Assembly (NCBI GenBank): GCA_963828755.1
Contig: CAWHFY010000017.1
Coordinates: forward strand, 27,524-91,523
Direction: 5' to 3'
Source of the DNA: an uncultured Solirubrobacterales bacterium
GTDB lineage: Bacteria; Actinomycetota; Thermoleophilia; Solirubrobacterales; 70-9
Length of the DNA stretch: 64,000 nt
Shown here one piece after another: positions 3,728 to 45,300 of the stretch. Position 1 is the stretch's first letter. Every line of letters starts with the position of its first letter. The notes beneath the pieces are model-generated. The model saw only the letters and a program-made list of their open reading frames with translations. It was not told the origin of the DNA and made no database searches. Both the position numbers and the translations under genes were made by a program.

Positions 3728-4918
3728 TTATGAAGTAATGGCGGATCCGGGAACCGGGTCGGTGAGCGAGCGGCGCTCCGGGCGACGCGTCTCCTCCCAC
3801 TCGTGGACGGTCTTGCGAAGCTGCAGGAAGGCGACGACACCGGGCGGGATCGGGAGCCAGAAGGCCATGATCCGGTAGAGCAGGATCGCGGCGAAGATGT
3901 TGTGGACACCGAAGAGCGCGAAGGCGCCGAGCATCCCCGCGTCGACCCCTCCGACCCCGCCGGGGAGCGGGATCAGGTTGGCGAACATGCCGACGAAGAA
4001 GGCCTGGACGACGACCGCGAGCGGCACCGAGACCCCGAAGGCCCGGAACGAGGCCCAGAGGATCCCGATCTGAGCGGCCCAGAAACCGACCGCGCCGAGC
4101 AGCGCGAGCCCGCCGCGCGACGGCTCGCGGACGAACCGCAGGGCCTCCCGGGTGCCGACCGCGGCGGTCGCCGGGACGGTCGCCAGGCGGCGCGCGATGC
4201 GGCCGGTCAGCTTCTCCTGCGAAGCCCCCGAGAAGCGACGCTCGAGATCCCCCGGGACCAGCGACATCAGCAGGAAGACGAGGATCACCCCGCCGGCGAT
4301 CGCGGCCGGGACGATCGTCATGCCCGGCGGCGCCGGGCCGCTGAAGACGCCGGTGCTCATCAGGATCCCGTTGATCACCAGGGTGACCATGTACACCGCG
4401 TACAGCAGGACGAGAAAGGCGACCATCCGCGCGGCGGTCTCCTTGCGCGGCATCCCGGCCTTGCGAAGCGCCCAGTAGGTGAGGACGATGCCGCCGGCGC
4501 CGCCGGCCGAGAACAGCCGGGTCGCCGCGAGGCCGGCCATCGTGATGTCGTAGGAGTCCTTCCAACGCAGCTTCACCCGCTCGCCGACGACGCCGCGAAA
4601 CAGGGCCACGTAGGCGCCGAACATGACCACGGCGAACCCGAACGAGACCGCGACCCAGACGGGCTTGGCGTCGCCGAGCTTGGCGCTTGCGTTCTGGTCG
4701 GCAACCAGCTTCGGCAGCAGCACGTAGATGCCGACGACGAGCACGAGGATGATCAGCGCCGACTGCGCGAGGCGCTTGGGGTTCTCGAAGAACGACGGCT
4801 CGTAGTCCTCCTCGTCGTCGTCCTCGTCGGACTCGACCCCAGGCTCGGCAGCCGTATCCGTCAGCATCTTTTCGAGCTCATCCCCCTTGTCACGATCGGT
4901 CGGATCAGGGCTCCCCAT
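3728..4918 (-). CDS. flippase-like membrane protein (lysylphosphatidylglycerol-synthase TM-region / UPF0104 family)
   Basis: 396-aa polytopic protein with an acidic N-terminus and the family-typical IPLPGGVGGVDAGMLGAF motif near the C-terminus. Confidence 0.7.
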   Translation of the reverse strand: MGSPDPTDRDKGDELEKMLTDTAAEPGVESDEDDDEEDYEPSFFENPKRLAQSALIILVLVVGIYVLLPKLVADQNASAKLGDAKPVWVAVSFGFAVVMFGAYVALFRGVVGERVKLRWKDSYDITMAGLAATRLFSAGGAGGIVLTYWALRKAGMPRKETAARMVAFLVLLYAVYMVTLVINGILMSTGVFSGPAPPGMTIVPAAIAGGVILVFLLMSLVPGDLERRFSGASQEKLTGRIARRLATVPATAAVGTREALRFVREPSRGGLALLGAVGFWAAQIGILWASFRAFGVSVPLAVVVQAFFVGMFANLIPLPGGVGGVDAGMLGAFALFGVHNIFAAILLYRIMAFWLPIPPGVVAFLQLRKTVHEWEETRRPERRSLTDPVPGSAITS

Positions 4919-4966
4919 CCAGGTTCATCCTCGCAGGCCCGCCCGTCGATACGCCGTCAGGCGCGC

Positions 4967-6102
4967 TCAGGCCGCGTTGGCAACTTGCTCGAGGCGGCGC
5001 AGGACGCGGTTCACGGCCTCGACCGCGGGCTCGGCCAGCGGCTCGCCGGCGCGGACCGCCGCGACCAGCGCGGCGCCCGCGATCAGGTCGGTCACGTAAT
5101 GCTCGCCGAGGTAGACGAGCGCGAAGGCGAGCGTCCCCGCGTACCCCCAGCCGATCGCCCCCGGGATCCGTCCCGCCTCGCGCAGGTGGATCGCTGCCAT
5201 CAGCGAGGTGGCGAAGTGAAGCGAGGGCATCGCCGCCCACGGGTTGCCGTTGAACCGGTCATAGAGCGGCTCCCAGGCCTGGCGCCACACCTGCTCGCCG
5301 GCGTCGACCATGATCCTCCGGACCTCGATCCCCTCCGCCTCGGCGACCTCGGCGGCGACGTGCTCGACGGGCGGGTCGATGTAGCCCTGCTCGGCCGACC
5401 ACCACGGCGGCGCCGTCGGGACGGCGAAGTACACGGCGCAGCCGAGGTCGTAGGTGGCGGCGAGCTGTCGCGCGGCGCGCGGGAAGCGGTCCGGGTGGCG
5501 CGCCTGGACGAAGAGCAGCGAGGCGTGCGGCTCCATGAACCAGACCCAGTGGACGGCCGAGAGCAGGCGGTCGAGCGCCGTCACGCGCCCGGGGCGGCTG
5601 AAGGTGCGCTGCAGGCGGGCGTTCGGCAGCTCGGCCGAGCCCGAGCGCGCGGTCGATCACGATCGGGTAGCGGATCCGCAGCCGGCGCCCGCAGCGCCGC
5701 CGGATCGTCGTAGGGGAGCTCGTGGGCCATCACGAACCCCCACATCTGGACGAGGTACAGGAGGATGTCGCGACCACGGGTGCGCGGACGCAGGACGGCG
5801 ACCGCCATCGGCCCGGCGACCAAGGCGCCGACGGTCAGACTCGCCGGGATCTCGCGCTTGCGGCGGAGCACCGGCAGCACGAAGGCGGCGGCGAGCACCC
5901 CGGCGGCCGCGACGCGGACCGCGGTCCGCTGCGTGGGCGAGGGGCGGCGCGAGAGGCGTGGCGGGCGCAAGGCGGGGCGAGTGTAATCGCCGCCGCTCGC
6001 CGTCGCCGCTCGCCGCTCGTATCGTCCGCCGCATGAGCCCAGAGCACGCGAGTGGCGGGGTTTGACGGCGCGGTCGCCGACGTCCGTCGATCGGCGCGGC
6101 AC
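4967..6102 (-). pseudogene. PAP2-superfamily membrane phosphatase, split over three frames (breaks near 5684 and 5633); start uncertain
   Basis: Frame 1 gives ..ILLYLVQMWGFVMAHELPYDDPAAL. Frame 2 gives RLRIRYPIVIDRALGLG. Frame 3 gives ELPNARLQRTFSRPGRVTALDRLL..PSLHFATS..YLGEHYVTD (PAP2 motifs). Confidence 0.65.
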
Positions 6103-6263: not shown

Positions 6264-7181
6264 TTGAGCCGTCGGACCATCCTGCTCGCCGCCACCACCG
6301 CCGTGCTCGCGCTCGCGTGGGCGGCGGCCCCTGCCTACGCGGTCGACCTCGCGCCGCCGGAGCCGCACTCGCCGAACGCGGAGACGATCCACTCCAGCTA
6401 CGTGGTGATGTTCGTGGTCACGATCGCGGTCATCCTGGCCGTCAACGTCGCCCTGATCGCTGCTGTCGTCCGCTTCCGCGAGCGTCGCGGGGTCGAGCCA
6501 GCCCGCTTTGCCGCCGGCCGCGGCGCGCTGCGCCCGGTGATCGGCGTACTCAGCGTCCTGGCGGTCGCGATCTTCGTCTACGGCGTGATCCAGACCGACG
6601 ACGCGCGCACGATCGAGCCGAGCGGACCTGACGGGTTGACCTCGAACCCGACCGCCCAGGTGGGGATCAAGGGCCTGTCGCCGTTCGCGACCACCGACGA
6701 CGAGCAGTCCGCGACCGGCTCGTTGCCGGTCGGCGGCTCAGAGCCGACCGAGTCGGCGCCGCTGCAGATCGACGCGATCGCGCAGCAGTGGCTGTGGCGC
6801 TTCGAGTACCCGGGCGGGCGTCCCGGCGCTCGCACCTTCTCGTACGGCGAGCTGGTCGTCCCGGTCGACACCACCGTCATCCTCAACATCACCTCGACCG
6901 ACGTGCTCCACAGCTGGCACGTTCCGGCGCTCGGCGGCCAGGTTCAGGCATCGCCCGGCGAGGTCGTGCAGACCTGGTTCAAGGCCGACTCGGTCGGCCG
7001 GTACTCGGGCTCTTCGACCGTGTTCTCCGGGACCAGCTTCCCGGCGATGCGCTCCTGGGTCCGGGTCGTGACGGTGCCCGAGTACGAGGCCTACATCAAG
7101 GACCTCGGCGCCCAGCTCGACAAGGCCCAGACGACCGTGCTCGACGTGCAGCAGAGCGCGAGTGAAGCGACCGCCCCATGA
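6264..7181 (+). CDS. cytochrome oxidase subunit II-like protein lacking the CuA ligands
   Basis: Signal peptide, 2 TM helices and a cupredoxin-like domain (QQWLWRFEYP, DVLHSWHVPALG). The CuA loop reads SGSSTVFSGTSFPAM where the in-window canonical CtaC has VCTELCGTGHATM. Confidence 0.8.
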   Translation: MSRRTILLAATTAVLALAWAAAPAYAVDLAPPEPHSPNAETIHSSYVVMFVVTIAVILAVNVALIAAVVRFRERRGVEPARFAAGRGALRPVIGVLSVLAVAIFVYGVIQTDDARTIEPSGPDGLTSNPTAQVGIKGLSPFATTDDEQSATGSLPVGGSEPTESAPLQIDAIAQQWLWRFEYPGGRPGARTFSYGELVVPVDTTVILNITSTDVLHSWHVPALGGQVQASPGEVVQTWFKADSVGRYSGSSTVFSGTSFPAMRSWVRVVTVPEYEAYIKDLGAQLDKAQTTVLDVQQSASEATAP

Positions 7182-9035
7182 CCCCTCCCGCCGCCACCCA
7201 CGGGGCCCGCCCCGAGATCGTCAGCCGCGAGCTGAAGTCATCGCGCCAGGCTTGGATCGAGCGCGCGACGAGCGCCGACCACAAGACGGTTGCGCTGATG
7301 TTCATCGCGACCGCCGGCACCTTCCTCGCCCTCGCCGCGACCCAGTTCGCGCTCATGCGTCTGCAGCTGATGGTCCCGGACAACACCCTGATCAAGCCGG
7401 AGATCTTCAACCGGCTGATGACCGGGGCGACGGTCAGCTTCCTGATCCTGGGCTGCTTCCCGCTGCTGCTCGGCCTGATCGGCTACATCGTGCCGCTGCA
7501 GATCGGGGCCCGAGGGGTCGCCCTGCCGCGGCTCAACCAGTTCTCCTACTACCTGTACCTGGCCGGGGGCGTGACCATCCTCGGCAGCTTCCTCTACAGC
7601 GCCCCGGAGACCGGCACGGCCGCCCTGCCGCCGCTCTCGGACCTGGTCTATTCGCCCTCGAACGGCGCCGACGCCTGGATCGCCGGCGTGGCTCTGGCGA
7701 CGCTCGGCTTCGTCTGCTTCGCGATCAACCTGATCGTCACCCTGCGCAAGCTGCGCGCCCCCGGGCTCGCCTGGCGCCGCGCACCGCTGTTCACCTGGGC
7801 GTCGGCGGTGATCGGGTACATGGTGCTGCTGATCGGCCCGGTGATGATCGCGGCCCTCACCATGCTGGAGATCGATCGCCGCTTCGACGGCGTCTTCTTC
7901 GACTCGCAGGAGGGCGGCGCGCCGCTGCTCTACGAGCACCTCTCCTACATCTACTTCACCGGCCTCTACCTGGCGATCTTCATCGGCGCCGCCGGGATCA
8001 TCTCGGAGATCCTGCCGACCTTCGGGCGCAAGCCGATCTTCAGCCGCCGCGCGGTCAGCACCTCGTTCGTCGCAGTCGCCGCGCTGGGCCTGCTCGCCTG
8101 GATGCAGAACATGTACATCGCGCCGCTCAACGAGGGCTGGACGATCATGGCGATGGCGTTCGCGCTCGCCCTGGTCGTCCCGATCGGCGTCGTGTTCTAC
8201 AACTGGATCGCGACGATCTGGGGCGGTGTGCTCGAACTCCGCGCCGCCACCTGGTACGCGCTCGCCGCGATCATGACGATGTCGTTCGGGCTCGCCGGCG
8301 AGCTCTCCTACTCGGTGATCCCGGTCGGCTGGGCGCTCGACTACACGACCGCGAGCCAGGGCGACACGCTCTACGTGCTCGTCGGCGGCGGCGTGATCGG
8401 CGGCTTCGCCGGCCTGCACTACTGGTTCCCGAAGCTCAACGGGCGGCTGCTCGGCGAGGGCATCGGCAAGGCCGCGCTCGCGCTGATCGTGATCGGGATC
8501 AACGTCTACGTGTTGATGATGTTCCTCGCCGGGCTCGAGGGCCAGCCGGTCGACATCTGGCGCTTCGCCGAGGACACCGGCGTCGACGGCTACAACCTGA
8601 TCGGCTCGATCGGCGCCTTCGTGCTCGTGATCGGGATCCTGCTCGAGCTCGGCAACGCCGCCTACAGCTGGCACAACGGCCTCCTCGCCCGCGGCCACGA
8701 CCCGTGGCGCGGCTCGACCCTCGAGTGGTACGCGCTTTCACCGCCCCCGCCGCACAATTTCGACGCGGTCCCGGACGTGCGCAGCGCCGAGCCGCTGCAC
8801 GACATCCGCGAATCGATCGCCGTCCGTGAGCGCACCTTCGTCGCGCCCGCTGGAGTCGAGCGGCTCGCGGCGTCGGAGCCCACGCCGAACCCGGGCCGCC
8901 GCGCAGGAACCCGAAGCGGTCGCCCCCGAGGCTTCGCCGAGCGCGACCGCGGTCGCCGAACCGGAGCAGGGAACGGAGCCGCCCGAGGAGTCGCCCGGCG
9001 ATTCCGACGACGGCGATAGCGCCCCGGTAGCCTGA
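7178..9035 (+). CDS. heme-copper oxidase subunit I-like protein lacking all six canonical His ligands; probable 1-nt insertion near 8897 before an acidic tail
   Basis: Collinear with the in-window CtaD (ADHKTVALMF, PRLNQFSYY, VPIGVVFYNW, HYWFPK, STLEWY). Ligand positions read TGA, FTG, QN and VGGG. After ~8897 GC3 bias moves to the frame of ORF 8826..9035 (..EPEAVAPEAS..DSDDGDSAPVA). Confidence 0.8.
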
Positions 9036-9040
9036 GCCCC

Positions 9041-10070
9041 ATGAGTGCAGTCGCCGCTCGTAGCGATGCGGACGAGCTTTCCCGCTTTCGCCGCCTCGTC
9101 ACCTTCACGATCGTCGCCACCTTCGCCCTGATCCTGATCGGGGGCGTCGTCCGAGTGAGCGATTCCGGGCTCGGCTGCGGCGCCGAGGGCAGCGGCACCC
9201 ACGGCTGGCCTCTGTGCGAGGGCGGCGTCCTCCCGGCCGACTCGGCCGAGTCGGTGATCGAGTTCAGCCACCGTGTCGCGGCGACGATCGTCGTCGTGCT
9301 GATCGCGCTGCTCGCCTTCAAGGCCTTCCGCCGCCTGCGCAGCCACCGGCTGCTCGTCCGGGGCTCCGTCGCCGCCGGCCTCCTGGTCGTCGCCCAGGCA
9401 GCGCTCGGTGGGCTCACGGTCGAGAAGGGACTCGAGGACGAGCTGGTCGCCGCGCACCTCGGGCCTCGCGATGCTGCTGCTCGGCCTGCTGTTCGTGCTG
9501 CGCCGCGGGGCCGAGACCACCGCGCCCCCCGCCTCCGAGTCCGTCCGCGGGCTGCGGCCGCTGAGCATGGTCACCGCGGGCCTGGTGCTGGCGACGATCG
9601 TCGCCGGCGGCTACGTCGCCGGGACCGAGTACCACGGCACCCCCGATCAGCCGCTGGTCGGCGCCCACTCGGCCTGCGGCACCGGCTGGGACACCGCCCA
9701 GTTCCCCGGCTGTAACGGGCAGGGGGCCCTCTCGTTCGGCCAGTCGCGGCTCGCTGACATCCAGCTCACCCACCGCCTGTTCATGTACCTGACCGCGATC
9801 TCGGTCGTGGCGATGGCGGCCGTCGCGCTGCGTCGCCGCGCGCCCAGCCGCGCCTTCTGGGTCGCGCCGCTGATCCTCATCGGCCAGATCGCGCTCGGCG
9901 CGATCAACGTCTGGGCCGGCAAGCACGCCGGGCTGATCATCGGCCACCTGGCGCTCGGGACGACACTGTGGGCGACCGTGGTCTACGCGACCGCTACTCT
10001 GCTGCCGGCCTCGGCGCCGGCGCCCCGAACGAGTCGGGAGCTCGCAGGCGACCGGAGCGGCACCGGCCTG
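9041..10070 (+). pseudogene. ctaA: heme A synthase (CtaA/COX15 family), 1-nt insertion near 9464; reads through into ctaB as sequenced
   Basis: GGVVRVSDSGLGC..WPLC, EFSHRVAATIV, then after the shift LAMLLLGLLF..QLTHRLFMYL..GHLALGTTLW. There is no in-frame stop before the CtaB part. Confidence 0.8.
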
Positions 10071-11018
10071 ATGGAAAGCGCGACGACAACGACGCCCCCC
10101 GTGGACGCTGGGATCGAGGCGGGCATCGGCACCCGCTCGCGGCTTGGCGAGAGCTCGTTCGCCGGGACGGTCCGCGACTACGTCACGCTCACCAAGCCGC
10201 GGATCATCTCGCTGCTGCTGCTGACCACCGTGGCGACGATGATCGTCGCCAAGGGCGGTTTCCCCGAGGTCTCGACGATGCTGTGGACGATGCTCGGCGG
10301 TTACCTGGCCGCCGGCGGCGCCGGGGCGATCAACCACTACATCGATCGCGACCGCGACGCGCGCATGGCCCGCACCCGCAGCCGGCCACTGGTCGCCGGC
10401 CGGATCGAGCCGCTGCACGGGCTCGCCTTCGGGATCGTGCTCGGGGCGCTCGCGGTGGTCGAGCTGGCCCTGACCGTCAACGTGCTGTCCGCGGTGCTCG
10501 CGCTCACCGGGCTGCTCGGCTACGTGCTCGTCTACACGATCTGGCTGAAGCCGATGACGCCGCAGAACATCGTGATCGGGGGCGCCGCCGGCGCCGTCCC
10601 GCCGCTGGTCGGCTGGGCCGCGGCAACCGGCGGCCTCGCCCCGGAGGCGCTCTACCCGTTCGGGATCGTCTTCCTCTGGACCCCACCCCACTTCTGGGCC
10701 CTCTCGCTGTTGATCAAGGACGACTACGCGCGCACCGGAGTGCCGATGCTGCCGGTCGTCAAGGGCGAGGCGGTCACCAGGCGCCAGATCCTCATCTACA
10801 CGCTGGTCCTGGTCGCGTTCACGCTGCTGCCGGTCGCCACCGGCTTCCTCGGTGCGATTTACGCGGTCGCCGCGGTCGTCCTCGGCGCCGGGTTCATCGC
10901 GCTCGCAGTGCGCCTGCTGCGCGACCGCAGCCGCGCGGCCGCGCTGCGCCTCTATCTGTCCTCCCTCGCCTACCTGGCGCTGCTGTTCTGCGCGATGGCC
11001 GCGGACCGGGTCGTCTGA
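10071..11018 (+). CDS. ctaB: protoheme IX farnesyltransferase (heme O synthase), UbiA family
   Basis: TLTKPRIISLLLLTT, GAINHYIDRDRDARMARTRSRPL, FLWTPPHFWAL. The ATG at 10071 overlaps a TGA in the neighbouring frame (TGATG). Confidence 0.85.
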   Translation: MESATTTTPPVDAGIEAGIGTRSRLGESSFAGTVRDYVTLTKPRIISLLLLTTVATMIVAKGGFPEVSTMLWTMLGGYLAAGGAGAINHYIDRDRDARMARTRSRPLVAGRIEPLHGLAFGIVLGALAVVELALTVNVLSAVLALTGLLGYVLVYTIWLKPMTPQNIVIGGAAGAVPPLVGWAAATGGLAPEALYPFGIVFLWTPPHFWALSLLIKDDYARTGVPMLPVVKGEAVTRRQILIYTLVLVAFTLLPVATGFLGAIYAVAAVVLGAGFIALAVRLLRDRSRAAALRLYLSSLAYLALLFCAMAADRVV

Positions 11019-11033
11019 TAGAACGACCTGAAC

Positions 11034-11144
11034 GTGGACCGCACCCGCGCCACATCGACCCTCGGATCCGGCCTGATCACGGCCGCCCTGGCGCTCGTCG
11101 TCTTCGGGCTCGTGTTCGTGATCGCGATCGTCTACATCGGCTGA
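11034..11144 (+). CDS. hypothetical 36-aa single-pass membrane micro-protein
   Basis: Own translation: GTG..VDRTRATSTLGSGLITAALALVVFGLVFVIAIVYIG*. High GC3. Sits between ctaB and the next ORF. Too short for the ORF track. Confidence 0.3.
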   Translation: MDRTRATSTLGSGLITAALALVVFGLVFVIAIVYIG

Positions 11145-11145
11145 G

Positions 11146-11424
11146 ATGAGCGCCGAGAGCCGCAACGGAGAGCCGGTCGAGCTCGTTTACGTGCCCGCGT
11201 CCTCATGGCAGCCGGCGCTGATCGCGTTCGGGCTCGCCGCGGTGCTCGCCTCGCTGTTCACCTGGTGGCCCTACGGCGTTGCAGGAGCGATCGTGGCGCT
11301 GTTCGCGCTGCGCTCCTGGATCCGCGATGCGCGCCGTGACTACACCCGCCTGCCGCGCCAGCAGCGGGTCGCGACCGCGGTCATCCCCGCGGTGCCGCTG
11401 CAGCGCCCCGCCAAGAGCGACTGA
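11146..11424 (+). CDS. small membrane protein (two predicted TM helices), function unknown
   Basis: 92-aa ORF, ..WQPALIAFGLAAVLASLFTWWPYGVAGAIVALFALRSW... Starts 1 nt after the micro-ORF stop. Confidence 0.55.
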   Translation: MSAESRNGEPVELVYVPASSWQPALIAFGLAAVLASLFTWWPYGVAGAIVALFALRSWIRDARRDYTRLPRQQRVATAVIPAVPLQRPAKSD

Positions 11425-11666
11425 GCGCGCTCGCGCGGCGCATCCGGGTGGCGGTAGGCGCGCGCTGACAGCGCCGTCCACTAGTGGGCGCCCGCCCGGT
11501 GCGGAGACCCGGTCGCTCAGGTCGGATGCGGGCGTCGCGAGTGTCGCCTCAGGCACGGTTCCCGGGCCTCAGACGACTTCGGCCGTGCCACACGATGGTG
11601 TCGCACGCTGTGAAGTGAGCTCGCGACGCGTTCGCGCCGCTCAGCGTGCGACCGAGGGCTGCGCGG

Positions 11667-12100
11667 CCGCGCGGCCTCAGGCCGCGCTCTGCTCGGCGTC
11701 CGGGGAGGTCGTGCTGGCCGTCGCGCCTTCGGTGGTCCAGACGCGAACGATGTCGCGCATCGAGAGCACGCCGACCAGCCTCGCCGCCGTCGACGATGAC
11801 CAGGTGGCGGATGTGGCGCCGCGACATCTCGACGGCGGCCCGTTCGAGGCTCCAGTCAGGCGCCGCGGAGATCACCGTGTCCGTCATGTGGTCGCCGACC
11901 CGCTCCGAGTCTGGGTCCTGGCCGTGGCCCAGCGAGTTGAGGATGTCGCGCTCCGAGACCATCCCCGGGCCCGGCAGCTCCTCGTCGATCACGACCGCCG
12001 CCCCGACGCCCTTCTCGGTCATCAGCCGTGCCGCCTCGCGCAGGCTGTGACCCGGCCCGACGGTCAGTACGACGCTCGACATCCCCTCGCGGACTTCCAT
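11667..12100 (-). pseudogene. CBS-pair domain protein, 1-nt insertion near 11779
   Basis: ..VVIDEELPGPGMVSERDILNS..RHIRHLVIVDGGE, then in the next frame LVGVLSMRDIVRVWTTEGATAS..SAA* (stop at 11667). Confidence 0.8.
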
Positions 12101-13246: not shown

Positions 13247-15265
13247 TTAGCGCTTTCGCTTGCGCTTCAACTTAACCTTCGTCGTTTCCGTGTTGGACAG
13301 GCCACCGGTCGGGGTGAAGGTGATCTTCGGCTTCACCTTCGCCTTGCCCTTCTTCTTCAGCTGCTTCTTCGCCTTGCCCTTGGCCACGACCTTGAGCTTG
13401 AAGGTCCCGGCGGCGCTGACCGGCTTTGACGCCCCGGACCGCGCGTGCGCCGGACGCTGTGGCTTGAGGCTCTTGCCGCTGAGCGCGAGCTCGCCCGCAC
13501 CCGGGACCGTGACCTGGATCGTCGCCGTGCCCTTCTTCTTGTTCAGCTTCTTCTTGCCGATCGTGAAGTTGTTCGGCGGGCAGCCGTCGGTCGTGTTTAG
13601 GTCGGGGGTCGTCGGGCAGGCATCCTGAGCATCGGCGATCCCGTCATGGTCGGTGTCCGCGCAGCCGGGAACCTTGAAGTTGCCGATCGCGGTCTTCCAG
13701 CTGTTGAGCGAGGTGGTGCTGTAGTACTGATTCGTGTACCAGAAGGTGCAGTCGTCGGCGGGGTCTACGGTCATCGAGCTGTAGTCGCCCCAGCGGTCGC
13801 CGAGGCTCGTCTGCGAGCCGCCGCCGGCCTTCATCACCTGTTCCGCACCGAGCGTTCCGGCGGGATCGCCGGGCGCACGGGTCGCGTAGCGGATACTCGG
13901 GAACGCCGTGCTGCTGGAGGCCGAGTAGCCGAGCGCAAGGTCGCCCTGGACGTCGAGGGCGGTGCTGCCCATGAATCGGTTCAGGCCACTGCCCGGGTCG
14001 TAGGTCCCCTCCTGGAACAGGCTCCACGCGGCGCCCGTATTGCGCAGCTCGAACCAGCGGGGAGCCGCGCCCGGCGATGCGCTGCCGCCGCCGACGGTGA
14101 AGTTGCCGACCAGCGCCTGGTGGTCGCCGAACCGGCGGTAGGCGAGTCGCTGCATCGGCCACTCGCTCACCGCGTCGACCTTCTCCGCCGTTCCCGCCTG
14201 CGGGATGCAGCTGAGGTTGAAGAAGCCGCAGACGGTGTATGTGAACGGCGCCACGTCGAAGCTGCCGGCCGACGTGAACGTGCTCGACGCCGGCGTGGCG
14301 AAGTTCGGGCTGAACGCGAACAGCTCGATCCGATCGGTCGGCACTCCGTGGTCGGGGAAGCTGCTGTCCTTGAACGTGTAGAAGAGGCCGGGGTCGCCGG
14401 ACCCGGGAGTCCGCGGCCCGTCGACGTCGGCCGGAAGCAGCAGGTTGGTCTGGCCCGGGAAGCGAACACCCGACGCGGTCGGGTCGCCGGCGAGCATCTT
14501 CGCCCGATCGAACGCATAGGCCGTGTAGGTCGACTCGTTGTCGGACACGTAGTAGCCGTTCGGCCACACGCCGACCTTGAAGTAGTCGGGGAGCTCGGGC
14601 GTGCTGAAGGCGTAGGTGAAATAGGCCCCGGTCGGGTCCGGAGTCTGCGAGATCGCGAAGCAGAGGAAGAAGGGGCCGCCACCCCCGTTGAGGACGAACT
14701 GCGCCAGCAGCCAGCGGTCCGCGATCGAGTCGTAGAGGACCTGCGGATCCCCGTCGTTGCTCGTGCTGCAGGAGCCGCTAGAGAACAGCGTCGAGAGGTC
14801 GAAGGCGGGCTCGAGCAGCGTGCCGGCCTTGTTGTAGATCGCGACCTTGGTTGCGTTGACCACCTGGACGTAGTGGTTGGGTCCGACGTCACCCGTCGTG
14901 TCGGGCGGCGAGCAGGTACCGCAGGCGAACGGGTTCGAGCTGCCGTCGAAGACGGCGCTCGGCGCCGGCGTGCGGGCGGTCGCGGATCCGCGAGCGGCGA
15001 GCGGGTCCGACGGGCTCGAAGCGCCCTCCCCCGTGCCGCGCGTTCCGGGCCTCGGTGACGAGCCGAGCGGGTTGAGGCGGGCAGCGCCGCCGCTCGAGTC
15101 AGACGACGCCGACGGGCCGAGGTCCGCAACCGCCGGGCTGACGCCGAAGTCCTGCAGCTCGACTCCCTGCGCCGCCGCGGCCGAGGCAGTGGAGGCCGTC
15201 AGGGAGAAGGCGAGTGCGGCGACAACGCCGACGACGCAAGTCACCCGGAACCTGGACAAGCTCAT
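13247..15265 (-). CDS. large secreted protein of unknown function with a thrombospondin-type-3-like Asp-rich motif and a Lys-rich C-terminal module
   Basis: Signal peptide (VVGVVAALAFSLTASTASA), CADTDHDGIADAQDACP motif. The tail reads KKKLNKKKGTATIQVTVPGAGELALSGK...KLKRKRKR. Confidence 0.7.
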   Translation of the reverse strand: MSLSRFRVTCVVGVVAALAFSLTASTASAAAAQGVELQDFGVSPAVADLGPSASSDSSGGAARLNPLGSSPRPGTRGTGEGASSPSDPLAARGSATARTPAPSAVFDGSSNPFACGTCSPPDTTGDVGPNHYVQVVNATKVAIYNKAGTLLEPAFDLSTLFSSGSCSTSNDGDPQVLYDSIADRWLLAQFVLNGGGGPFFLCFAISQTPDPTGAYFTYAFSTPELPDYFKVGVWPNGYYVSDNESTYTAYAFDRAKMLAGDPTASGVRFPGQTNLLLPADVDGPRTPGSGDPGLFYTFKDSSFPDHGVPTDRIELFAFSPNFATPASSTFTSAGSFDVAPFTYTVCGFFNLSCIPQAGTAEKVDAVSEWPMQRLAYRRFGDHQALVGNFTVGGGSASPGAAPRWFELRNTGAAWSLFQEGTYDPGSGLNRFMGSTALDVQGDLALGYSASSSTAFPSIRYATRAPGDPAGTLGAEQVMKAGGGSQTSLGDRWGDYSSMTVDPADDCTFWYTNQYYSTTSLNSWKTAIGNFKVPGCADTDHDGIADAQDACPTTPDLNTTDGCPPNNFTIGKKKLNKKKGTATIQVTVPGAGELALSGKSLKPQRPAHARSGASKPVSAAGTFKLKVVAKGKAKKQLKKKGKAKVKPKITFTPTGGLSNTETTKVKLKRKRKR

Positions 15266-19518: not shown

Positions 19519-19815
19519 CTACCAGCGCTCGAGGATGCCGGCTGGCCCGTCGTCGCCGACCGACCGCAACAGGACCGCGACCCTCGAGCGCGAGACATTG
19601 GGAGAGGCCCCGGTCAGATCAGCGAATGCGTCGATCAGATCGGCGCCGAGCTCGAGCCCGACCTGGGGATGCCTCGCAAGCCAGAAGCCAATCCAGCGGA
19701 CCAGGGCGCGTTCGTAACGACTGTCTCGCTCGTCGCCCATCATCAGGGCGGCGCGCGAGGCTGAGAACCGCTTGCCTAAGCGGTTTCTAGAGGAGATATA
19801 CGGCTGTGAAGACAA
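19519..19815 (-). CDS. hypothetical protein (start more likely the internal Met near 19743)
   Basis: 98-aa ORF with no recognisable family. Its 5' end would overlap the ctaE stop. Confidence 0.3.
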   Translation of the reverse strand: MSSQPYISSRNRLGKRFSASRAALMMGDERDSRYERALVRWIGFWLARHPQVGLELGADLIDAFADLTGASPNVSRSRVAVLLRSVGDDGPAGILERW

Positions 19816-20425
19816 TCAGCCACATCACGTCGACGAAGTGCCAGTAGATGCCCGGCACCTCCACCCCGAGGTGGTCCTTGGCCTCGGGGCCGAAGTGACC
19901 GCGCCAGGCGCGGATGTTGGCGAACGAGAGCAGCACCAGCCCGACGAAGACGTGGGCTCCGTGAAGGCCGGTGAGGCCGTAGAAGATCGAGCCGAAGGCG
20001 CCGTCGCGGGCGCTGAAGCCGACGTGGATGTACTCGTTGATCTGGATGAAGAGGAAGGTCGCGCCGAGGAGCCAGGTGAGCGCCAGCCCCATCTTCATGC
20101 CGTTGCGGTTACCCCGGCGCACCGACTCGAGCGCCCAGTGGACCGTGAAGCTGGACGAGACCAGGATCGCCGTGTTGACCGCGGCGACCGAGACCGGGAG
20201 GTCGAAGCCCTCCGGCGGCCACGGGCCCTCGTTGGAGACGACGCGGAGGAAGAAGTACGAGGCGAAGAACGCCCCGAACAGCATGATCTCCGAGATGATG
20301 AAGAGCAGGATGCCGAGCGTCTGGCGGTCGATCCGCGAGCTCTGATGGGCCTCGGGCGGACCGTGGTGCTCGTGCTCGTGGGCGCCGGAGGAGGAGCCCG
20401 GAACCGGAATCGAAGCGGATTCCAT
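19787..20425 (-). CDS. ctaE: cytochrome c oxidase subunit III
   Basis: MESASIP..LGILLFIISEIMLFGAFFASYF..HVFVGL..WHFVDVMWL. The ATG at 20425 overlaps the upstream stop (TGATG). The ORF track extends to 20551. Confidence 0.85.
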   Translation of the reverse strand: MESASIPVPGSSSGAHEHEHHGPPEAHQSSRIDRQTLGILLFIISEIMLFGAFFASYFFLRVVSNEGPWPPEGFDLPVSVAAVNTAILVSSSFTVHWALESVRRGNRNGMKMGLALTWLLGATFLFIQINEYIHVGFSARDGAFGSIFYGLTGLHGAHVFVGLVLLSFANIRAWRGHFGPEAKDHLGVEVPGIYWHFVDVMWLIVFTAVYLL

Positions 20426-21348
20426 CAGGCCGGAACCTCCGTGGAGTCGTTGCTCGTTGCTCGTTGTTCGGCCGCCCCACGGGCCTCGTAGTGCTCGACC
20501 GGGAGGTCGGTGACCTCCTTGACGCGGTCGATCAGGCCCTCCTCGACCCACTTCGACTGCTGGCCGGCCAGGGTCGAGATCAGGATCTCGTCGATCCGGT
20601 AGTGGTCGATCGCGTTGGTGATCGCCGCGAACGGCTCCGGGCTCATCGGCTGGCCCGTAGCGTCGATGTCATCGCGGTAGAGCTCGGCGAGGGTCGCCGC
20701 GAGCCGCTCGCACACCTGCTCGCGGCTGAGATCGCCCGAGCGCGGGCAGATCACCGTGTAGCGGTGCGGCTTCTCGGCGGCGCGCTCCTTGAGGCGCGCG
20801 ACCAGGTCGGGGCTGTTGATCGTCTGCGTGCCGACCACCAGGGTGTGGACGACGTCCCAGCGCACCGCGTCGTCGTCGACGCGGACCGGGATGTGGGTGA
20901 CCGGGACCTCGATGTTGGCTTTCGCCCACTCGACAAGGTCCTTGCGCGTGAGCCCAAAGCGGGTCTCGTAGAGGGCGGAGAGCAGCACCTCGTCGGGCTG
21001 GAAGGCGCGGACGGCATCATCGAGGGCGAGCGAGGGCAGCGGATCCATGACCGCGCCCACAGCCTCGATCCCGAACGCCTCGAGCACCCGCTGCGTCACC
21101 TCGACCCGGCTCTGGGCGGCGTCGCGGATCTCGTCACGATCGACGATCTGGCCGACGGTCGGCAGGTTCTGCGGCGCCGCGACGGCGACGTGATCGGCGC
21201 CCGCCTCGACCCGGTCGCGGACGGCCTGGAGCAGCTTGCGCCCGCCGGCGACCTCGTTCACGAACGCGAGCACGGTGCCGCCATCGGACCAGTCGACCGA
21301 GCTGGTCGGGTCGTCGACGGGATAGTCGGCGTGTTCGGCGTCGGTCAC
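20425..21348 (-). CDS. tandem USP-like (Rossmann-like alpha/beta) two-domain protein, function unknown
   Basis: Two ~140-aa internal repeats. They end DEVLLSALYETRFGL..VEWAKANIEVPVTHIPV and DEILISTLAGQQSKWVEEGLIDRVKEVTDLPVEHYE. Start and stop overlap ctaD and ctaE. Confidence 0.6.
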   Translation of the reverse strand: MTDAEHADYPVDDPTSSVDWSDGGTVLAFVNEVAGGRKLLQAVRDRVEAGADHVAVAAPQNLPTVGQIVDRDEIRDAAQSRVEVTQRVLEAFGIEAVGAVMDPLPSLALDDAVRAFQPDEVLLSALYETRFGLTRKDLVEWAKANIEVPVTHIPVRVDDDAVRWDVVHTLVVGTQTINSPDLVARLKERAAEKPHRYTVICPRSGDLSREQVCERLAATLAELYRDDIDATGQPMSPEPFAAITNAIDHYRIDEILISTLAGQQSKWVEEGLIDRVKEVTDLPVEHYEARGAAEQRATSNDSTEVPA

Positions 21349-23279
21349 GGACTACTCCCTGCGGTCTCGGTCCCGGCACCTGCCCCGACCGTCGCCGGCT
21401 CGTGCTCGCGCACTTCGGCCTCGGACGGGCCCATGATCGCGTGGCGCGCGCCCGGGACGCCGAACTCGTACGGGCCGCCGACCACGCGCGGGATCTCGTC
21501 GAAGTTGAAGACTGGCGGCGGCGAGGAGACCTGCCACTCGATCGTCTTCGCCCGCCACGGGTTCGCGGTCGCCTTCGGCCCCCACTTCCAGCTCACGGCC
21601 ATGTTGTAGAGGAAGATCAGCTGCGCGATCCCGAGCACGAACGAGGAGATCGAGATCACGAGGTTCCAATCGCCGAACTGGGCGGCGTAGTCGGCCACTC
21701 GGCGCGGCATGCCCTCCATCCCGATCCAGTGCATCGGGATGAACGTGCCGAGCATCCCGATCAGGGTGAGGTAGAAGTGCGCGCGCCCGAGCCGCTCGTC
21801 GTACATGCGCCCAGTCATCTTCGGGAACCAGTGATAGATCCCGGAGAAGATCGTGAACACCGAGCCGCCGAACAGCACGAAGTGGATGTGGGCGACGATG
21901 AAGTAGGTGTCGGAGACGTGGATGTCGATCGGCACCATGCCGAGCATCACCCCGGAGATCCCGCCGATCACGAACGTGACGATGAACCCGAGGCTGAACA
22001 GCATCGCGGTCGATTTGAGGTGGATCTTTCCGTCGAAGAGGGTCGCCAGCCAGGAGAAGATCTTGATCCCGGTCGGGACCGCGATCAGCAGCGTGGTGAT
22101 CATCATCGGCACGCGCAGCCAGCTGAACATCCCGCTGACGAACATGTGGTGTGCCCACACGGTGTAGGACAGGACGACGATCCCAAGCAGCGCCAGCGCC
22201 ATCAACCGGTAGCCGAAGATCGGTTTGCGGGCGTGGGTGGAGATCACCTCGGAGACGATCCCGAACCCGGGCAACATCATGATGTAGACGGCCGGGTGCG
22301 AGTAGAACCAGAAGATGTGCTGGTAGCTGAGCACGTCGCCGCCGAACGTCTCCTGGAAGAAGTTGGTGTTCAGGGCGCGGTCGAAGAGGACCATGAACTG
22401 GACGCCGGCGATGAACGGCGTCGCCGCCACCACGAGCAGCGAGGTCGAGAGGTTCGCCCAGACCAGCAGCGGCATGCGCCAGAAGGTCATTCCGGGCGCA
22501 CGCATGGTGATGATCGTGACCAGGAAGTTGAGTGCGGTCGCGATCGATGAGGCGCCTGCGAACTGCACTCCGAGGTTGAAGAACGACTGCCCGAGCGGGG
22601 CCCCGGTGGAGAGCGGCGCGTAGCCCGTCCAGCCGGCGTCGAAGGCGCCGCCGGGGACGAGGAAGCTGGCCAGGAACAGGAGTCCGGCCATCGGCAGCAT
22701 CCAGAAGGAGAGGGCGTTGAGCCGCGGGAACGCCATGTCCGGCGCGCCGATCATCAGCGGCAGCACGTAGTTGGCAATCCCGGCGAAGATCGGGATCACG
22801 AAGACGAAGATCATCAGCGCCGCGTGGGTCGAGAAAAGGCCGTTGTAGAGACCCGGGTCGACGATCTGCGTGCCCGGCTGGGCAAGCTCGGCGCGGATCA
22901 GCATCGCGACGAGGCCACCGCAGAGGAAGAAGAAGAAGGTGGTGACGATGTACTGGATCCCGATCACCTTGTGATCGGTGTTGAACTTGAAGTAGTCGCG
23001 CCACGACTTGGCCCCGTGCTGGGAGTGGTCGTCGGGCACGGTCGGGGCGCCGATCGCCCAGCGGAACCAGTAGTCGAAGGCCCCGAGCCCGATCAGGAAG
23101 CCCAGTGGGCCGGTGATCGCCGGAACGATCAGGTGCGGGTAGCCGGTCTGTTCGGTCTGGAAGATCTCAAGCCCGGAGATCGCGCGCAGCGCAACGACGA
23201 GCCCGAAACCGAAGCCGGCGCCGATGATGAACCCGAGGCCCGCCCGGATCAGACCTGGTGACTTCACTGCCGCTGCCAA
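21345..23279 (-). CDS. ctaD: cytochrome c oxidase subunit I (A2-type)
   Basis: All ligands present: STHAALMIF, FWFYSHPAVYIMMLPGFG, WAHHMFVSG, DTYFIVAHIHFVLFGG. VPTGIKIFSW carries the K-channel Lys. Confidence 0.95.
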   Translation of the reverse strand: MAAAVKSPGLIRAGLGFIIGAGFGFGLVVALRAISGLEIFQTEQTGYPHLIVPAITGPLGFLIGLGAFDYWFRWAIGAPTVPDDHSQHGAKSWRDYFKFNTDHKVIGIQYIVTTFFFFLCGGLVAMLIRAELAQPGTQIVDPGLYNGLFSTHAALMIFVFVIPIFAGIANYVLPLMIGAPDMAFPRLNALSFWMLPMAGLLFLASFLVPGGAFDAGWTGYAPLSTGAPLGQSFFNLGVQFAGASSIATALNFLVTIITMRAPGMTFWRMPLLVWANLSTSLLVVAATPFIAGVQFMVLFDRALNTNFFQETFGGDVLSYQHIFWFYSHPAVYIMMLPGFGIVSEVISTHARKPIFGYRLMALALLGIVVLSYTVWAHHMFVSGMFSWLRVPMMITTLLIAVPTGIKIFSWLATLFDGKIHLKSTAMLFSLGFIVTFVIGGISGVMLGMVPIDIHVSDTYFIVAHIHFVLFGGSVFTIFSGIYHWFPKMTGRMYDERLGRAHFYLTLIGMLGTFIPMHWIGMEGMPRRVADYAAQFGDWNLVISISSFVLGIAQLIFLYNMAVSWKWGPKATANPWRAKTIEWQVSSPPPVFNFDEIPRVVGGPYEFGVPGARHAIMGPSEAEVREHEPATVGAGAGTETAGSSP

Positions 23280-23297
23280 CGCCTTACCTCCTCAAGC

Positions 23298-24101
23298 CTA
23301 TGTCCCGCCGGACGATGCCGCGGACCCGCCGCCCGCGGTCGCCGACTGCGCTTTCGCCTGCTCGGCGAGCCAGGCCTCGAACTCCTGTTGTGACTCGACC
23401 ACCACGGGGGCCCGCATGGTCGCGTGGCCGGTGCCGCAGAGCTCCGTGCAGACGAGGCTGAAGCTGCCCTCTTGGTCCGGGGTGACGACGAACTGGTTGT
23501 CGATCCCCTCCGCCTCCGGGTCCTCGGCCGGGACCGCGTCGCGCTTGATCCCCCACTCGGGCACCCAGAAGGAGTGGAGGACGTCGAGCGCCGTCATCGT
23601 CACTTCGAGCTGGCGGTCGACCGGGACGTGGAGCTCGCTGGTCGTCACCGGGGTCGCGTTATCGCCCGTGCCTACCATTTGCTCGGGGTATTCGAAGGTC
23701 CACTTGAACTGCTGGCCGGTCACCGTGACCGGCATCGCATCCGGCTCCTTGGCCTCGATGTCGTCGAGCACGACCCAGCTGTAGCCGGCGCCGAACAGGA
23801 CGATGATCGTCGGGATCACGGTCCAGGCGATCTCGAGCTTGGTGTTGCCGTGGATCGGCTTCCCGTCGCCTTCGTCGCCCGGCTTGACGCGGAACTTCCA
23901 GATCGCGTAGCCGAACATCACGCACACGATCGAGAAGACGAACGACGAGAGCACGACCATGACGTTGAAGAGCGTGTCGATCGGGCCACGCTGCTCGGAG
24001 GCTGCGTCGCCGAACCAGTTGAACTGGAGCAGGATCACGGACATCACTGCCCCGATCACGATCATCGCGGCGACAAGCCGCACATAGGTCACCCGGGTCA
24101 C
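23298..24101 (-). CDS. ctaC: cytochrome c oxidase subunit II with intact CuA site
   Basis: 2 TM helices plus a cupredoxin domain. DVLHSFWVPEWG and CTELCGTGHATM. Confidence 0.95.
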   Translation of the reverse strand: MTRVTYVRLVAAMIVIGAVMSVILLQFNWFGDAASEQRGPIDTLFNVMVVLSSFVFSIVCVMFGYAIWKFRVKPGDEGDGKPIHGNTKLEIAWTVIPTIIVLFGAGYSWVVLDDIEAKEPDAMPVTVTGQQFKWTFEYPEQMVGTGDNATPVTTSELHVPVDRQLEVTMTALDVLHSFWVPEWGIKRDAVPAEDPEAEGIDNQFVVTPDQEGSFSLVCTELCGTGHATMRAPVVVESQQEFEAWLAEQAKAQSATAGGGSAASSGGT

Positions 24102-44139: not shown

Positions 44140-45300
44140 ATGCAGCTCGGGGCGCCCGCGCAGGTGCGCAGTCGGCGGAGATCGGCACCGGTCGCGGTCG
44201 CGATCGCCTCGCTGACCGTCGGCGCCGCGGCTGCGGCCGCCTCAGGCGGCGGCGGGGTCGGCACTCCGGATCCGCCCGTGCTGACCGGCGTCCTGTGCCT
44301 CGAGCGCTGCGCCGACGTGCGCGAGGCCACCGTCGGCTCCCGCGTCCAGCTCAGCGGCCGCGGGCTCGACGGGGTCGACGAGGTTCGCTTCGCCGCCGAC
44401 GGCGGCGGCCGAGTCGCGGCGGCGCCGAGTTCGGTGTCGGGGGCCACGGTCGAAGTCAAGGTCCCGGCCAAGGCGGCATCGGGGACGGTGCGCGCGAGGG
44501 CTTACGGGACCGAGGCCGAGACGCCGAGCGACCAGCCACTGAAGATCGTCGATCCGGGCCAGATCCCGACCGGCGGCCAGTTCAAGCTCACCGCCGCCGA
44601 GGCGACCCCGCATCAGACCTTCTACGACGGGCTGCGGGCGCCGCGGGTGTCCTACATCTTCCAGGGCCCCGACGCCACCGACGTCCGGGTCGCGATCGTG
44701 AACCGCGAGACCAAGGAGGTCGTCGACACCTTCATCCAGGACGACGCCAAGCCCGGAACCCGCAACGTCGCCAAGTGGGACGGGCGGACGACCGACGGCG
44801 CACCGGCGCCGGGTGGCGACTACAAGTTCGAGCTCGGCAGCGCGGCGGGCGGCGCGACCCTGGCCACCGAGGACTCGGACTTCGGCTACCACCTCTACCG
44901 CTTCCCGCTCGACTCGCGCCACACCTACGGCGACGGCTACGGCGCGGGCCGCGGGCACCAGGGCCAGGACGTCTTCGCGAAGTGCGGCACGCCGATCCAC
45001 GCCGCCCGCGGCGGTCGCGTGCAGACGGTCGACGTGCAGTCCGCAGCGGGCAACTACGTCGTCCTCGACGGCAAGGGCACGAAGTTCGACACCTTCTACG
45101 CCCACCTGATCCGCCGCTCGCCCCTGCGGGAGGGCGCCCGGGTGCGCACGGGCCAGGTGATCGGCAACGTCGGTCAGACGGGCAACGCGTCCGGCTGCCA
45201 CCTGCACTTCGAGATCTGGAGCGGGCCCGGCTGGTACGAGGGCGGTCACCCGCTGCCGAGCGTCGGCGACCTGCTGCACAACTGGGACAGCTGGAGCTGA
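44140..45300 (+). CDS. secreted M23-family metallopeptidase with IPT/TIG-like and FlgD-Ig-like N-terminal domains
   Basis: HQGQDVFAKCGTP..., GNASGCHLHFEIW. N-terminal ..KWDGRTTDGAPAPGGDYKFEL. Confidence 0.85.
   Translation: MQLGAPAQVRSRRRSAPVAVAIASLTVGAAAAAASGGGGVGTPDPPVLTGVLCLERCADVREATVGSRVQLSGRGLDGVDEVRFAADGGGRVAAAPSSVSGATVEVKVPAKAASGTVRARAYGTEAETPSDQPLKIVDPGQIPTGGQFKLTAAEATPHQTFYDGLRAPRVSYIFQGPDATDVRVAIVNRETKEVVDTFIQDDAKPGTRNVAKWDGRTTDGAPAPGGDYKFELGSAAGGATLATEDSDFGYHLYRFPLDSRHTYGDGYGAGRGHQGQDVFAKCGTPIHAARGGRVQTVDVQSAAGNYVVLDGKGTKFDTFYAHLIRRSPLREGARVRTGQVIGNVGQTGNASGCHLHFEIWSGPGWYEGGHPLPSVGDLLHNWDSWS

Follow-up and report, generated by a model that had tools for sequence, protein, structure and literature searches.

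The window analysed here is a stretch of 64,000 nucleotides (G+C about 72%) from an uncultured Solirubrobacterales bacterium (GenBank assembly GCA_963828755.1, contig CAWHFY010000017.1, positions 27,524 to 91,523 of the forward strand). Near its start lie two overlapping genes, here called pCOX2 and pCOX1. Their translation is coupled, and they are paralogues of subunits II and I, respectively, of the A-family haem-copper oxidases. An initial annotation, made from the letters of the window, had described them as a maintained pseudo-oxidase in which every redox-metal ligand is substituted. The pair, the genes for haem O and haem A synthesis next to it, and the canonical oxidase of the same window are as follows.

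pCOX2, 6264..7181, plus strand: subunit II-like, 305 amino acids (aa), TTG start, a Pfam COX2 homologue.
pCOX1, 7178..9035, plus strand: subunit I-like, 12 transmembrane helices; 619 aa when repaired, stop codon at 9033-9035.
ctaA, 9041..10071, plus strand: haem A synthase; start 5 nt past the repaired pCOX1 stop; broken in the window.
ctaB, 10071..11018, plus strand: haem O synthase of the UbiA family (NF003349, 372 bits).
Canonical aa3 oxidase operon, 19787..24101, minus strand: every ligand present; about 10 kb from the pCOX pair.
CtaC of the canonical operon, 23298-24101, minus strand.
CtaD of the canonical operon, 21345-23279, minus strand: 644 aa.

The start of pCOX1 overlaps the stop of pCOX2 by 4 nt (ATGA), and ctaB lies on the same strand within about 1.1 kb of pCOX1. 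G+C content at third codon positions (GC3) is 0.93 in pCOX2 and 0.94 in pCOX1, in agreement with the coding-type bias noticed at the outset. As written in the window, the pCOX1 open reading frame (ORF) covers 7178-9019 and encodes 613 aa; its repair to 619 aa is discussed below.

Profile searches place pCOX1 in the subunit I family, with a match to Pfam PF00115 (COX1) of 275 bits (cut-off 34.8) over profile positions 2-436 of 436. It stays below the NCBIfam equivalog cut-offs of both TIGR02891 (CtaD_CoxA, 392 vs 670.75) and NF050116 (cyt_aa3_Actin, 350 vs 880). Ligand positions were read from three independent alignments: one made with MAFFT against the CtaD and CtaC of the window, one made with MAFFT together with 120 homologues, and one made with HMMER, in which the references were Corynebacterium glutamicum CtaD (7q21_D) for pCOX1 and Rhodobacter sphaeroides subunit II for pCOX2. 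In all three, pCOX1 has none (0/6) of the six invariant His ligands of catalytic subunit I. The helix II haem a His is replaced by Ala, the CuB His by Thr, its cross-linked Tyr by Leu and the HH pair by QN, so that the losses claimed for these positions are borne out. The claimed loss of both helix X His also stands, with Asp at the haem a3 position and Leu at the haem a position, but the register given for it does not, as VAHIHFV pairs with GDTLYVL and not with LVGGGVI. The K-channel Thr and Lys read Ile and Val, as had been described; the D-channel Asp and Asn are both replaced by Gly, and the haem-propionate Arg-Arg pair by Val-Asp. When mid-membrane His were sought in pCOX1 none was found, all 8 of its His being at helix ends or in loops, and the alignments show no His at the haem and FeB/CuB positions of nitric oxide reductases (NOR) of the cNOR, qNOR, eNOR, sNOR, gNOR and other types (as defined in PMC11214002). 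All 29 canonical representatives have the six His, which pCOX1 and 120/120 of its closest homologues lack.

The partner protein is likewise a member of its family, with pCOX2 scoring 56.5 bits against Pfam PF00116 (COX2; cut-off 22). It consists of a signal peptide, two transmembrane helices, a disordered linker and a cupredoxin domain. It falls below the CoxB/CtaC equivalog TIGR02866 (119 vs a cut-off of 147.7), and it is not a quinol oxidase subunit II either, with scores of 66 vs 266 for CyoA (TIGR01433) and 62 vs 241 for QoxA (TIGR01432). The CuA loop reads S-T-V-F-S-G-T-S-F-P-A-M, and the alignments confirm that both Cys are replaced by Ser and the His by Phe; indeed, there is no Cys in the whole protein. 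The first CuA His (H216, in DVLHS) and the Met (M262) are retained, in 121/121 homologues, and are all that remains of the CuA motif H...C-x-E-x-C-x3-H-x2-M. The statement that every redox ligand has been replaced is thus correct for pCOX1 and has to be narrowed for pCOX2. Having lost both proton channels, as well as residues required to bind CuA, CuB and the two haems (a and a3), the pair is predicted to be unable to reduce O2 or to pump protons.

The fold itself seems to have been kept. The AlphaFold2 model of pCOX1 (predicted local distance difference test score, pLDDT, 73; predicted template modelling score, pTM, 0.77) superimposes on A-family subunit I structures with template modelling scores (TM-scores) of 0.82-0.86. 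The best-conserved parts of the protein are the loops that it has in common with canonical subunit I (DHK, PRLN, RAPG, RKPIF, HYWFPK and LEW..SPPP.HNFD), which agrees with the conserved fold landmarks named in the initial annotation. For pCOX2, the AlphaFold2 model shows two transmembrane helices and a beta domain, at a confidence (pLDDT 55) that is too low for a fold search. In the pCOX1 sequence, two Gly of helix IX that are invariant in canonical enzymes are exchanged, G372 for Leu and G375 for Glu or Lys, and further bulky exchanges are found near haem a3 (V264 to Tyr, A309 to Met). Since small invariant residues have become bulky at these four positions, the sequence suggests that the haem a3 pocket is filled by side chains and not vacant.

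Relatives of the pair were collected from one genome per GTDB species by means of the motif AWMQ[NS]MY and a C-terminal motif, which yielded at least 571 confirmed relatives. Counts over 80 genomes or loci given below refer to the best 80 of these, at species level and with 47-86% identity; all are named Solirubrobacterales, Thermoleophilia, Conexibacter(aceae) or Actinomycetota. In 80/80 of these genomes pCOX1 is one uninterrupted match of at least 540 of 568 residues, and pCOX2 is found in 78/80. For each protein, the substitutions extend to all 120 of its closest homologues, which are 65-98% identical to it.

The ratio of nonsynonymous to synonymous substitution rates (dN/dS) was taken from close genome pairs only (dS 0.03-0.28). 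It is 0.09-0.3 for pCOX1 and 0.14-0.48 for pCOX2, comparable to ctaB (0.10-0.35) and other neighbouring genes, and 0.05-0.10 for canonical CtaD. For distant pairs, Nei–Gojobori (NG86) estimates gave medians of 0.4-0.8 for all genes and were not used, as synonymous sites saturate at GC3 > 0.9. In one and the same genome pair, identity is 80% for pCOX1 and 93% for CtaD. Judged by the dN/dS ratios, the pair is under purifying selection throughout Solirubrobacterales/Thermoleophilia, at the level of an ordinary gene and much less than that on the real oxidase.

Two independent contigs (L010 and L011), 98% identical and of short-read style ('NODE_', SPAdes-type), served as references for frameshifts in the window. 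A single C that is present in both of them is absent from the window at 8884 and again at 8895, so that the 613-aa ORF loses its frame over the final ~44 residues, which are Arg-rich. Restoring the C at both positions gives the 619-aa protein, which has the acidic end of the family consensus (DDGDSAPVA). The description of both ORFs as long, stop-free and overlapping therefore holds for the ATGA overlap, but not for the C-terminus of pCOX1 as written in the window. One-nucleotide indels in C/G runs occur at 5630, 5686, 6001, 8884, 8895, 9037, 9464 and 10021, with more at 11453-11783. Those at 5630 and 5686 disrupt PAP2, and the +1 indels at 9464 and 10021 break ctaA and join its frame to ctaB, while L010 has an intact ctaA (342 aa) and ctaB (315 aa). 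Because they lie in C/G runs, affect ctaA and PAP2 as well, and are absent from L010 and L011, the window indels are probably sequencing errors rather than biology. Their pattern looks like long-read homopolymer error; many of the relatives are 'MFD' metagenome-assembled genomes, and their contig names suggest long-read assemblies. We accordingly rejected a ctaA pseudogene or a genuine ctaA-ctaB fusion in the window. An apparent COX1-CtaA fusion among the homologues (P0109, 1069 aa) was also rejected, as its match to the CtaA profile, confined to positions 2-54, reflects frameshift read-through. Other ORFs of the window may be falsely broken in the same way.

These observations bear on the simplest alternative, namely that pCOX2 and pCOX1 are functionless relics, pseudogenes in slow decay. 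The pair does evolve faster than CtaD, and the C-terminal tail of pCOX1 is frameshifted in the window. That frameshift, however, belongs to the indels attributed to sequencing error, both genes are intact in nearly all of the species genomes, their start/stop overlap is conserved, their GC3 is that given above, and their dN/dS is well under 1 and near that of functional neighbours. We regard this alternative as extremely improbable, and simple decay is effectively excluded. The proposal that the pair is a maintained cofactor-less pseudo-oxidase and not a product of random decay is supported by its intactness, dN/dS, coupling and predicted fold, together with its synteny.

The gene order around the pair is nearly fixed among the 80 loci. 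It begins with Pyr_redox, LPG_synthase_TM and PAP2_3 on the minus strand, followed on the plus strand by pCOX2, pCOX1, (ctaA), ctaB, orf36 and orf92. A CBS gene (minus), a dihaem cytochrome c gene (plus) and (ctaA) come next, and then COX3, orf307, CtaD and CtaC on the minus strand. Further genes of this arrangement in the window are as follows.

LPG_synthase_TM, 3728-4918, minus strand: conserved divergent neighbour.
PAP2_3, 4967 onwards (with LPG_synthase_TM the pair spans 3728..5584), minus strand: 5' part broken in the window by the indels at 5630 and 5686.
orf36, 11034..11144, plus strand: 36 aa, single transmembrane helix; a 36-37-aa gene is called at the equivalent position in relatives.
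orf92, 11146..11424, plus strand: CtaF-like protein with two transmembrane helices, present in 68/80 related loci.
COX3 of the canonical operon, within 19787-20551, minus strand.
307-aa gene between CtaD and COX3, 20425-21348, minus strand: conserved, no family match.

Linkage to the haem synthase genes is conserved: ctaB is a neighbour in 78 of the 80 loci and ctaA in 54, the latter in a variable position, either between pCOX1 and ctaB or past the cytochrome c gene; orf92 follows in the number listed above. Within the unit, genes overlap by 4 nt or are separated by gaps of 5-90 nt, and the overlap of pCOX2 with pCOX1 is conserved. More distant members (P0241, P0243, P0247 and P0264; 35-51% identity with the window protein), retrieved without bias when 1.84 billion representatives were searched with HMMER, have the same arrangement. 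A scan for promoters and terminators and a search of Rfam near the pCOX locus gave nothing informative.

A weak but consistent likeness links orf92 to subunit IV (CtaF) of actinobacterial oxidases and concerns the C-terminal half of that subunit. Matches to Pfam Cyt_c_ox_IV were obtained for 16/26 members (best E-value 2e-4, all under the curated cut-off), and an orf92 profile matches PDB 9wcx_m with an E-value of 4.7e-4. This likeness is one of the points in favour of a second alternative, in which pCOX2 and pCOX1 form a permanent non-catalytic subunit pair, either an inactive partner of CtaD/CtaC or a spacer in a supercomplex of the bcc-aa3 type, independent of haem synthesis. The best-conserved parts of pCOX1 are surface loops in common with canonical subunit I, as would be expected of such a subunit, and in most genomes the canonical oxidase and the dihaem cytochrome c are encoded within ~10 kb. 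Nonetheless, the pair sits in a tight operon with ctaA and ctaB while the canonical oxidase genes are on the other strand, and it has no dedicated COX3-like partner. On balance we consider a purely structural subunit unlikely.

Some features of the surrounding genes were noted in passing. The divergent trio of Pyr_redox_2, LPG_synthase_TM and PAP2_3 is kept upstream even in members of 35-44% identity, which is compatible both with functional linkage to the pseudo-oxidase and with inherited synteny. No ctaF can be recognised within the canonical oxidase operon of the window lineage. Its 307-aa gene encodes a soluble-looking protein, has a start that overlaps the ctaD stop, and is found at this position in about 50/80 related loci. 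Canonical CtaD carries a ~95-residue N-terminal extension ahead of DHK, in which two putative extra hydrophobic helices can be read from the sequence; its length is kept, at 644-645 aa in two related loci (L001 and L002).

Variation inside the family gives some indication of how the sites were lost. The CuB positions are non-His throughout, and the low-spin haem positions drift, from Tyr in helix II with His in helix X in distant members, through Phe/Phe or Tyr/Tyr in intermediate members, to Ala or Ser with Leu in the clade of the window protein. The helix X His is kept in 30/81 Thermoleophilia members, together with the helix II Tyr. In nearly all family members the propionate Arg pair is Val-Asp.

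Two alternatives turn on these positions. In the first of these, the protein would bind haem O or haem A without His, through Tyr, Met, Asp or a pocket for the farnesyl group only, and would act as a carrier or chaperone from CtaB/CtaA to CtaD. The operon link to the haem O and haem A synthases is what such a carrier would show, as are the His and Tyr retained in those 30 members and the bis-His site of the Acidimicrobiia relatives described below. On the other hand, the window clade has Ala/Ser and Leu at the low-spin positions, the Arg pair that would hold the propionates is Val-Asp in nearly all members, and the glycines of the haem a3 pocket have become Leu and Glu/Lys, all of which makes a haem carrier decidedly improbable. 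The second is that the fold has taken on a new activity of a non-redox kind, for example conduction of ions or small molecules via the polar cluster (Thr, Gln, Asn, Asp, Glu, Asp) that replaces the binuclear centre. The residues concerned (T261, Q310, N311, D396, E375 and D459) are conserved in the window clade, and D459 is found in 78/81 members of the wider family. However, the conservation of Q and N among the 80 loci is partly circular, as these residues are part of the search motif AWMQ[NS]MY, and deep members found without the motif carry QS, LN, LR or TT instead; D396 is Ala in 29/81 members. Both canonical channel entrances are lost, and no transporter-type neighbours are conserved. 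We hold this conduction role to be very unlikely.

Other COX1-like lineages have lost ligands as well, and two of them lie close to genes for haem synthesis or the UbiA family.

Acidimicrobiia COX1-like family: L092 7001-8677 and L095 7551-9230 (P0300, P0355, P0391-P0508).
L094 998-4549 (P0287): COX2-like gene, COX1-like gene, then an overlapping 411-aa UbiA-family gene.

In the Acidimicrobiia family (P0300 and 119 homologues) the bis-His low-spin haem site is kept in 118-120 of 120 sequences. The family has lost the haem a3 His, every one of the three CuB His and the residues of the D and K channels, and it has Trp in place of the Tyr. Its gene is placed between ctaB/ctaA/CtaG and a canonical caa3 operon, and is followed by a COX3-like gene, a gene for a ~330-aa protein with a faint cupredoxin match, and a thioredoxin-like gene. 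It resembles the window family in the derived states G372L, Y290R/H, R458V and F368L and in the ctaB/ctaA neighbourhood. It differs in its bis-His site, in having a COX3-like partner and not a clear COX2-like one, and in belonging to another class of Actinomycetota. The COX1-like protein of L094 has the signature NQGRHQG, with 5/6 ligand His lost and one CuB His kept. More ligand-poor COX1 types were seen among the top-150 representatives (P0281, P0313, P0358, P0375, P0350 and others). A neighbour-joining tree recovers the window family as monophyletic and places it among the other degenerate COX1 lineages, including that of Acidimicrobiia; long-branch attraction is possible, and the deep topology was not relied on. 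Taken in order, the bis-His site in Acidimicrobiia, the Tyr/His pair in distant Thermoleophilia and the Ala/Leu pair in the window clade give the impression that cofactor loss was stepwise.

There is a possible explanation for a pair that has lost its cofactors and kept its fold and its place. We tentatively favour the reading that pCOX2 and pCOX1 act as a non-redox scaffold, either for CtaB and CtaA or for haem A hand-over to and assembly of the true CtaD/CtaC, because association with ctaB recurs in Acidimicrobiia, in L094 and in Acetobacter; the likeness of orf92 to oxidase subunit IV also speaks for it. The pair would then be what is left of an ancestral ctaC-ctaD-ctaB-type oxidase operon, which we infer to have passed its catalytic role to a second oxidase, its proteins being retained as a non-redox membrane scaffold. 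In this role they may stabilise or organise CtaB and CtaA; alternatively, they could serve as a docking module at which haem A is handed over and CtaD/CtaC assembled. A more far-reaching version, which we would not expect to hold, is that of a cofactor-free and essential 'dummy oxidase' that gathers CtaB and CtaA in one complex for haem A synthesis and passes haem A to the real subunit I. It would represent an ancient Actinomycetota-wide module that lost first the binuclear centre (as in Acidimicrobiia) and then the last haem (as in Thermoleophilia).

Several points weigh against the scaffold reading. First, ctaB is found within 3 kb of 5/19 canonical COX1 loci sampled from metagenomes, a baseline that comes from a metagenome scan with the alignment of the Acidimicrobiia family. 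The link of the pair with ctaB may therefore be purely historical, and synteny within the order is inherited, not independently evolved. The same scan was rejected as a search for family members, since its patterns are common to canonical COX1 and all 80 loci were of the HHYHHHH type. Second, pCOX1 evolves about three times faster than CtaD, and the substituted 'ligand' positions vary within the family, a variation that fits a scaffold and fits weak constraint equally well. Finally, haem ligation by residues other than His (Tyr, Met, Asp) may be conceivable.

Irrespective of the exact role, the pair is a clean natural case of a membrane pseudoenzyme and reveals what the oxidase scaffold can do apart from catalysis. 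Its fixed place in the operon of the haem O and haem A synthases offers a testable handle on how farnesylated haem is transferred from CtaB/CtaA to subunit I, and also on how these synthases are stabilised. Should the dummy-oxidase version be true, the pair would be a device dedicated to delivering haem A, for which no counterpart has been described in bacteria. There is a practical consequence too. The pCOX genes carry annotations such as 'cytochrome c oxidase subunit I/II' or 'cbb3-type ... subunit I', and metagenomic surveys that count names therefore overcount terminal oxidases in these lineages.

Elsewhere in the window, a c-di-AMP riboswitch (RF00379; 43964-44131, plus strand; 72 bits, E-value 1e-14) lies directly upstream of an M23 peptidase gene (44140-45300). 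A 672-aa ORF (13247-15265, minus strand; GC3 0.90) has no Pfam or NCBIfam match beyond a sub-threshold thrombospondin type 3 repeat.

Compared with known systems, the pair is closest in build to canonical A2-type aa3 oxidases, namely the CtaD/CtaC of the window and the enzymes of C. glutamicum and Mycobacterium smegmatis (PDB 7q21 and 6adq). It is ~30-33% identical to them and has the same fold of 12 transmembrane helices, the same loops, a cupredoxin subunit II with two transmembrane helices, and the gene order II then I. What it lacks relative to them are the haem and CuB ligands, the cross-linked Tyr, the D and K channels, the propionate Arg pair and the CuA Cys. A cupredoxin subunit II devoid of CuA is also known from CyoA/QoxA and from gNOR (PMC11214002), though there the partner is a fully liganded catalytic subunit I. 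According to a recent survey, the active-site His of haem-copper oxidases are completely conserved in all families except gNOR, in which one is replaced (PMC11214002). That replacement is by Asp and gNOR is still thought to be catalytic, whereas in pCOX1 all six His are gone.

The nearest counterpart in kind comes from Acetobacter, in which a 'deranged COX1-like protein' without conserved metal-binding residues is kept in the ctaB cluster (Matsutani et al. 2014, via Degli Esposti et al. 2023, PMC10715153). In a brief remark in that source, a structural role in stabilising CtaB is suggested for it. The ctaB/ctaA genes of Acetobacter are described as functional remnants of a lost oxidase cluster (PMC6915089). 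Like that protein, pCOX1 is a ligand-less subunit I homologue clustered with ctaB. Acetobacter, however, belongs to Alphaproteobacteria that have lost cytochrome c oxidase, and the window keeps an intact aa3 oxidase; the pair differs further in having a ligand-poor subunit II partner and in being conserved across a whole actinobacterial order. The Acetobacter protein was compared by description only, and the likeness is compatible with both homology and convergence. Full-text literature searches found no description of the actinobacterial pCOX family, the Acetobacter remark being the sole relevant match. The initial annotation knew of no characterised family with this signature, and these searches agree with that for Actinomycetota; Acetobacter is a partial precedent (PMC10715153).

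A more distant parallel, and an analogy only as the protein family is unrelated, is the 'rogue' or 'super-rogue' D1 (ChlF) of photosystem II. ChlF, too, is paralogous to a core subunit rich in cofactors, lacks the metal ligands needed for catalysis there and has a link to the biosynthesis of a cofactor; in contrast to the pCOX pair, it is an enzyme of demonstrated activity. In all, pCOX2/pCOX1 represents, in a widespread actinobacterial form, a phenomenon that has so far been mentioned for Acetobacter alone and only in passing.

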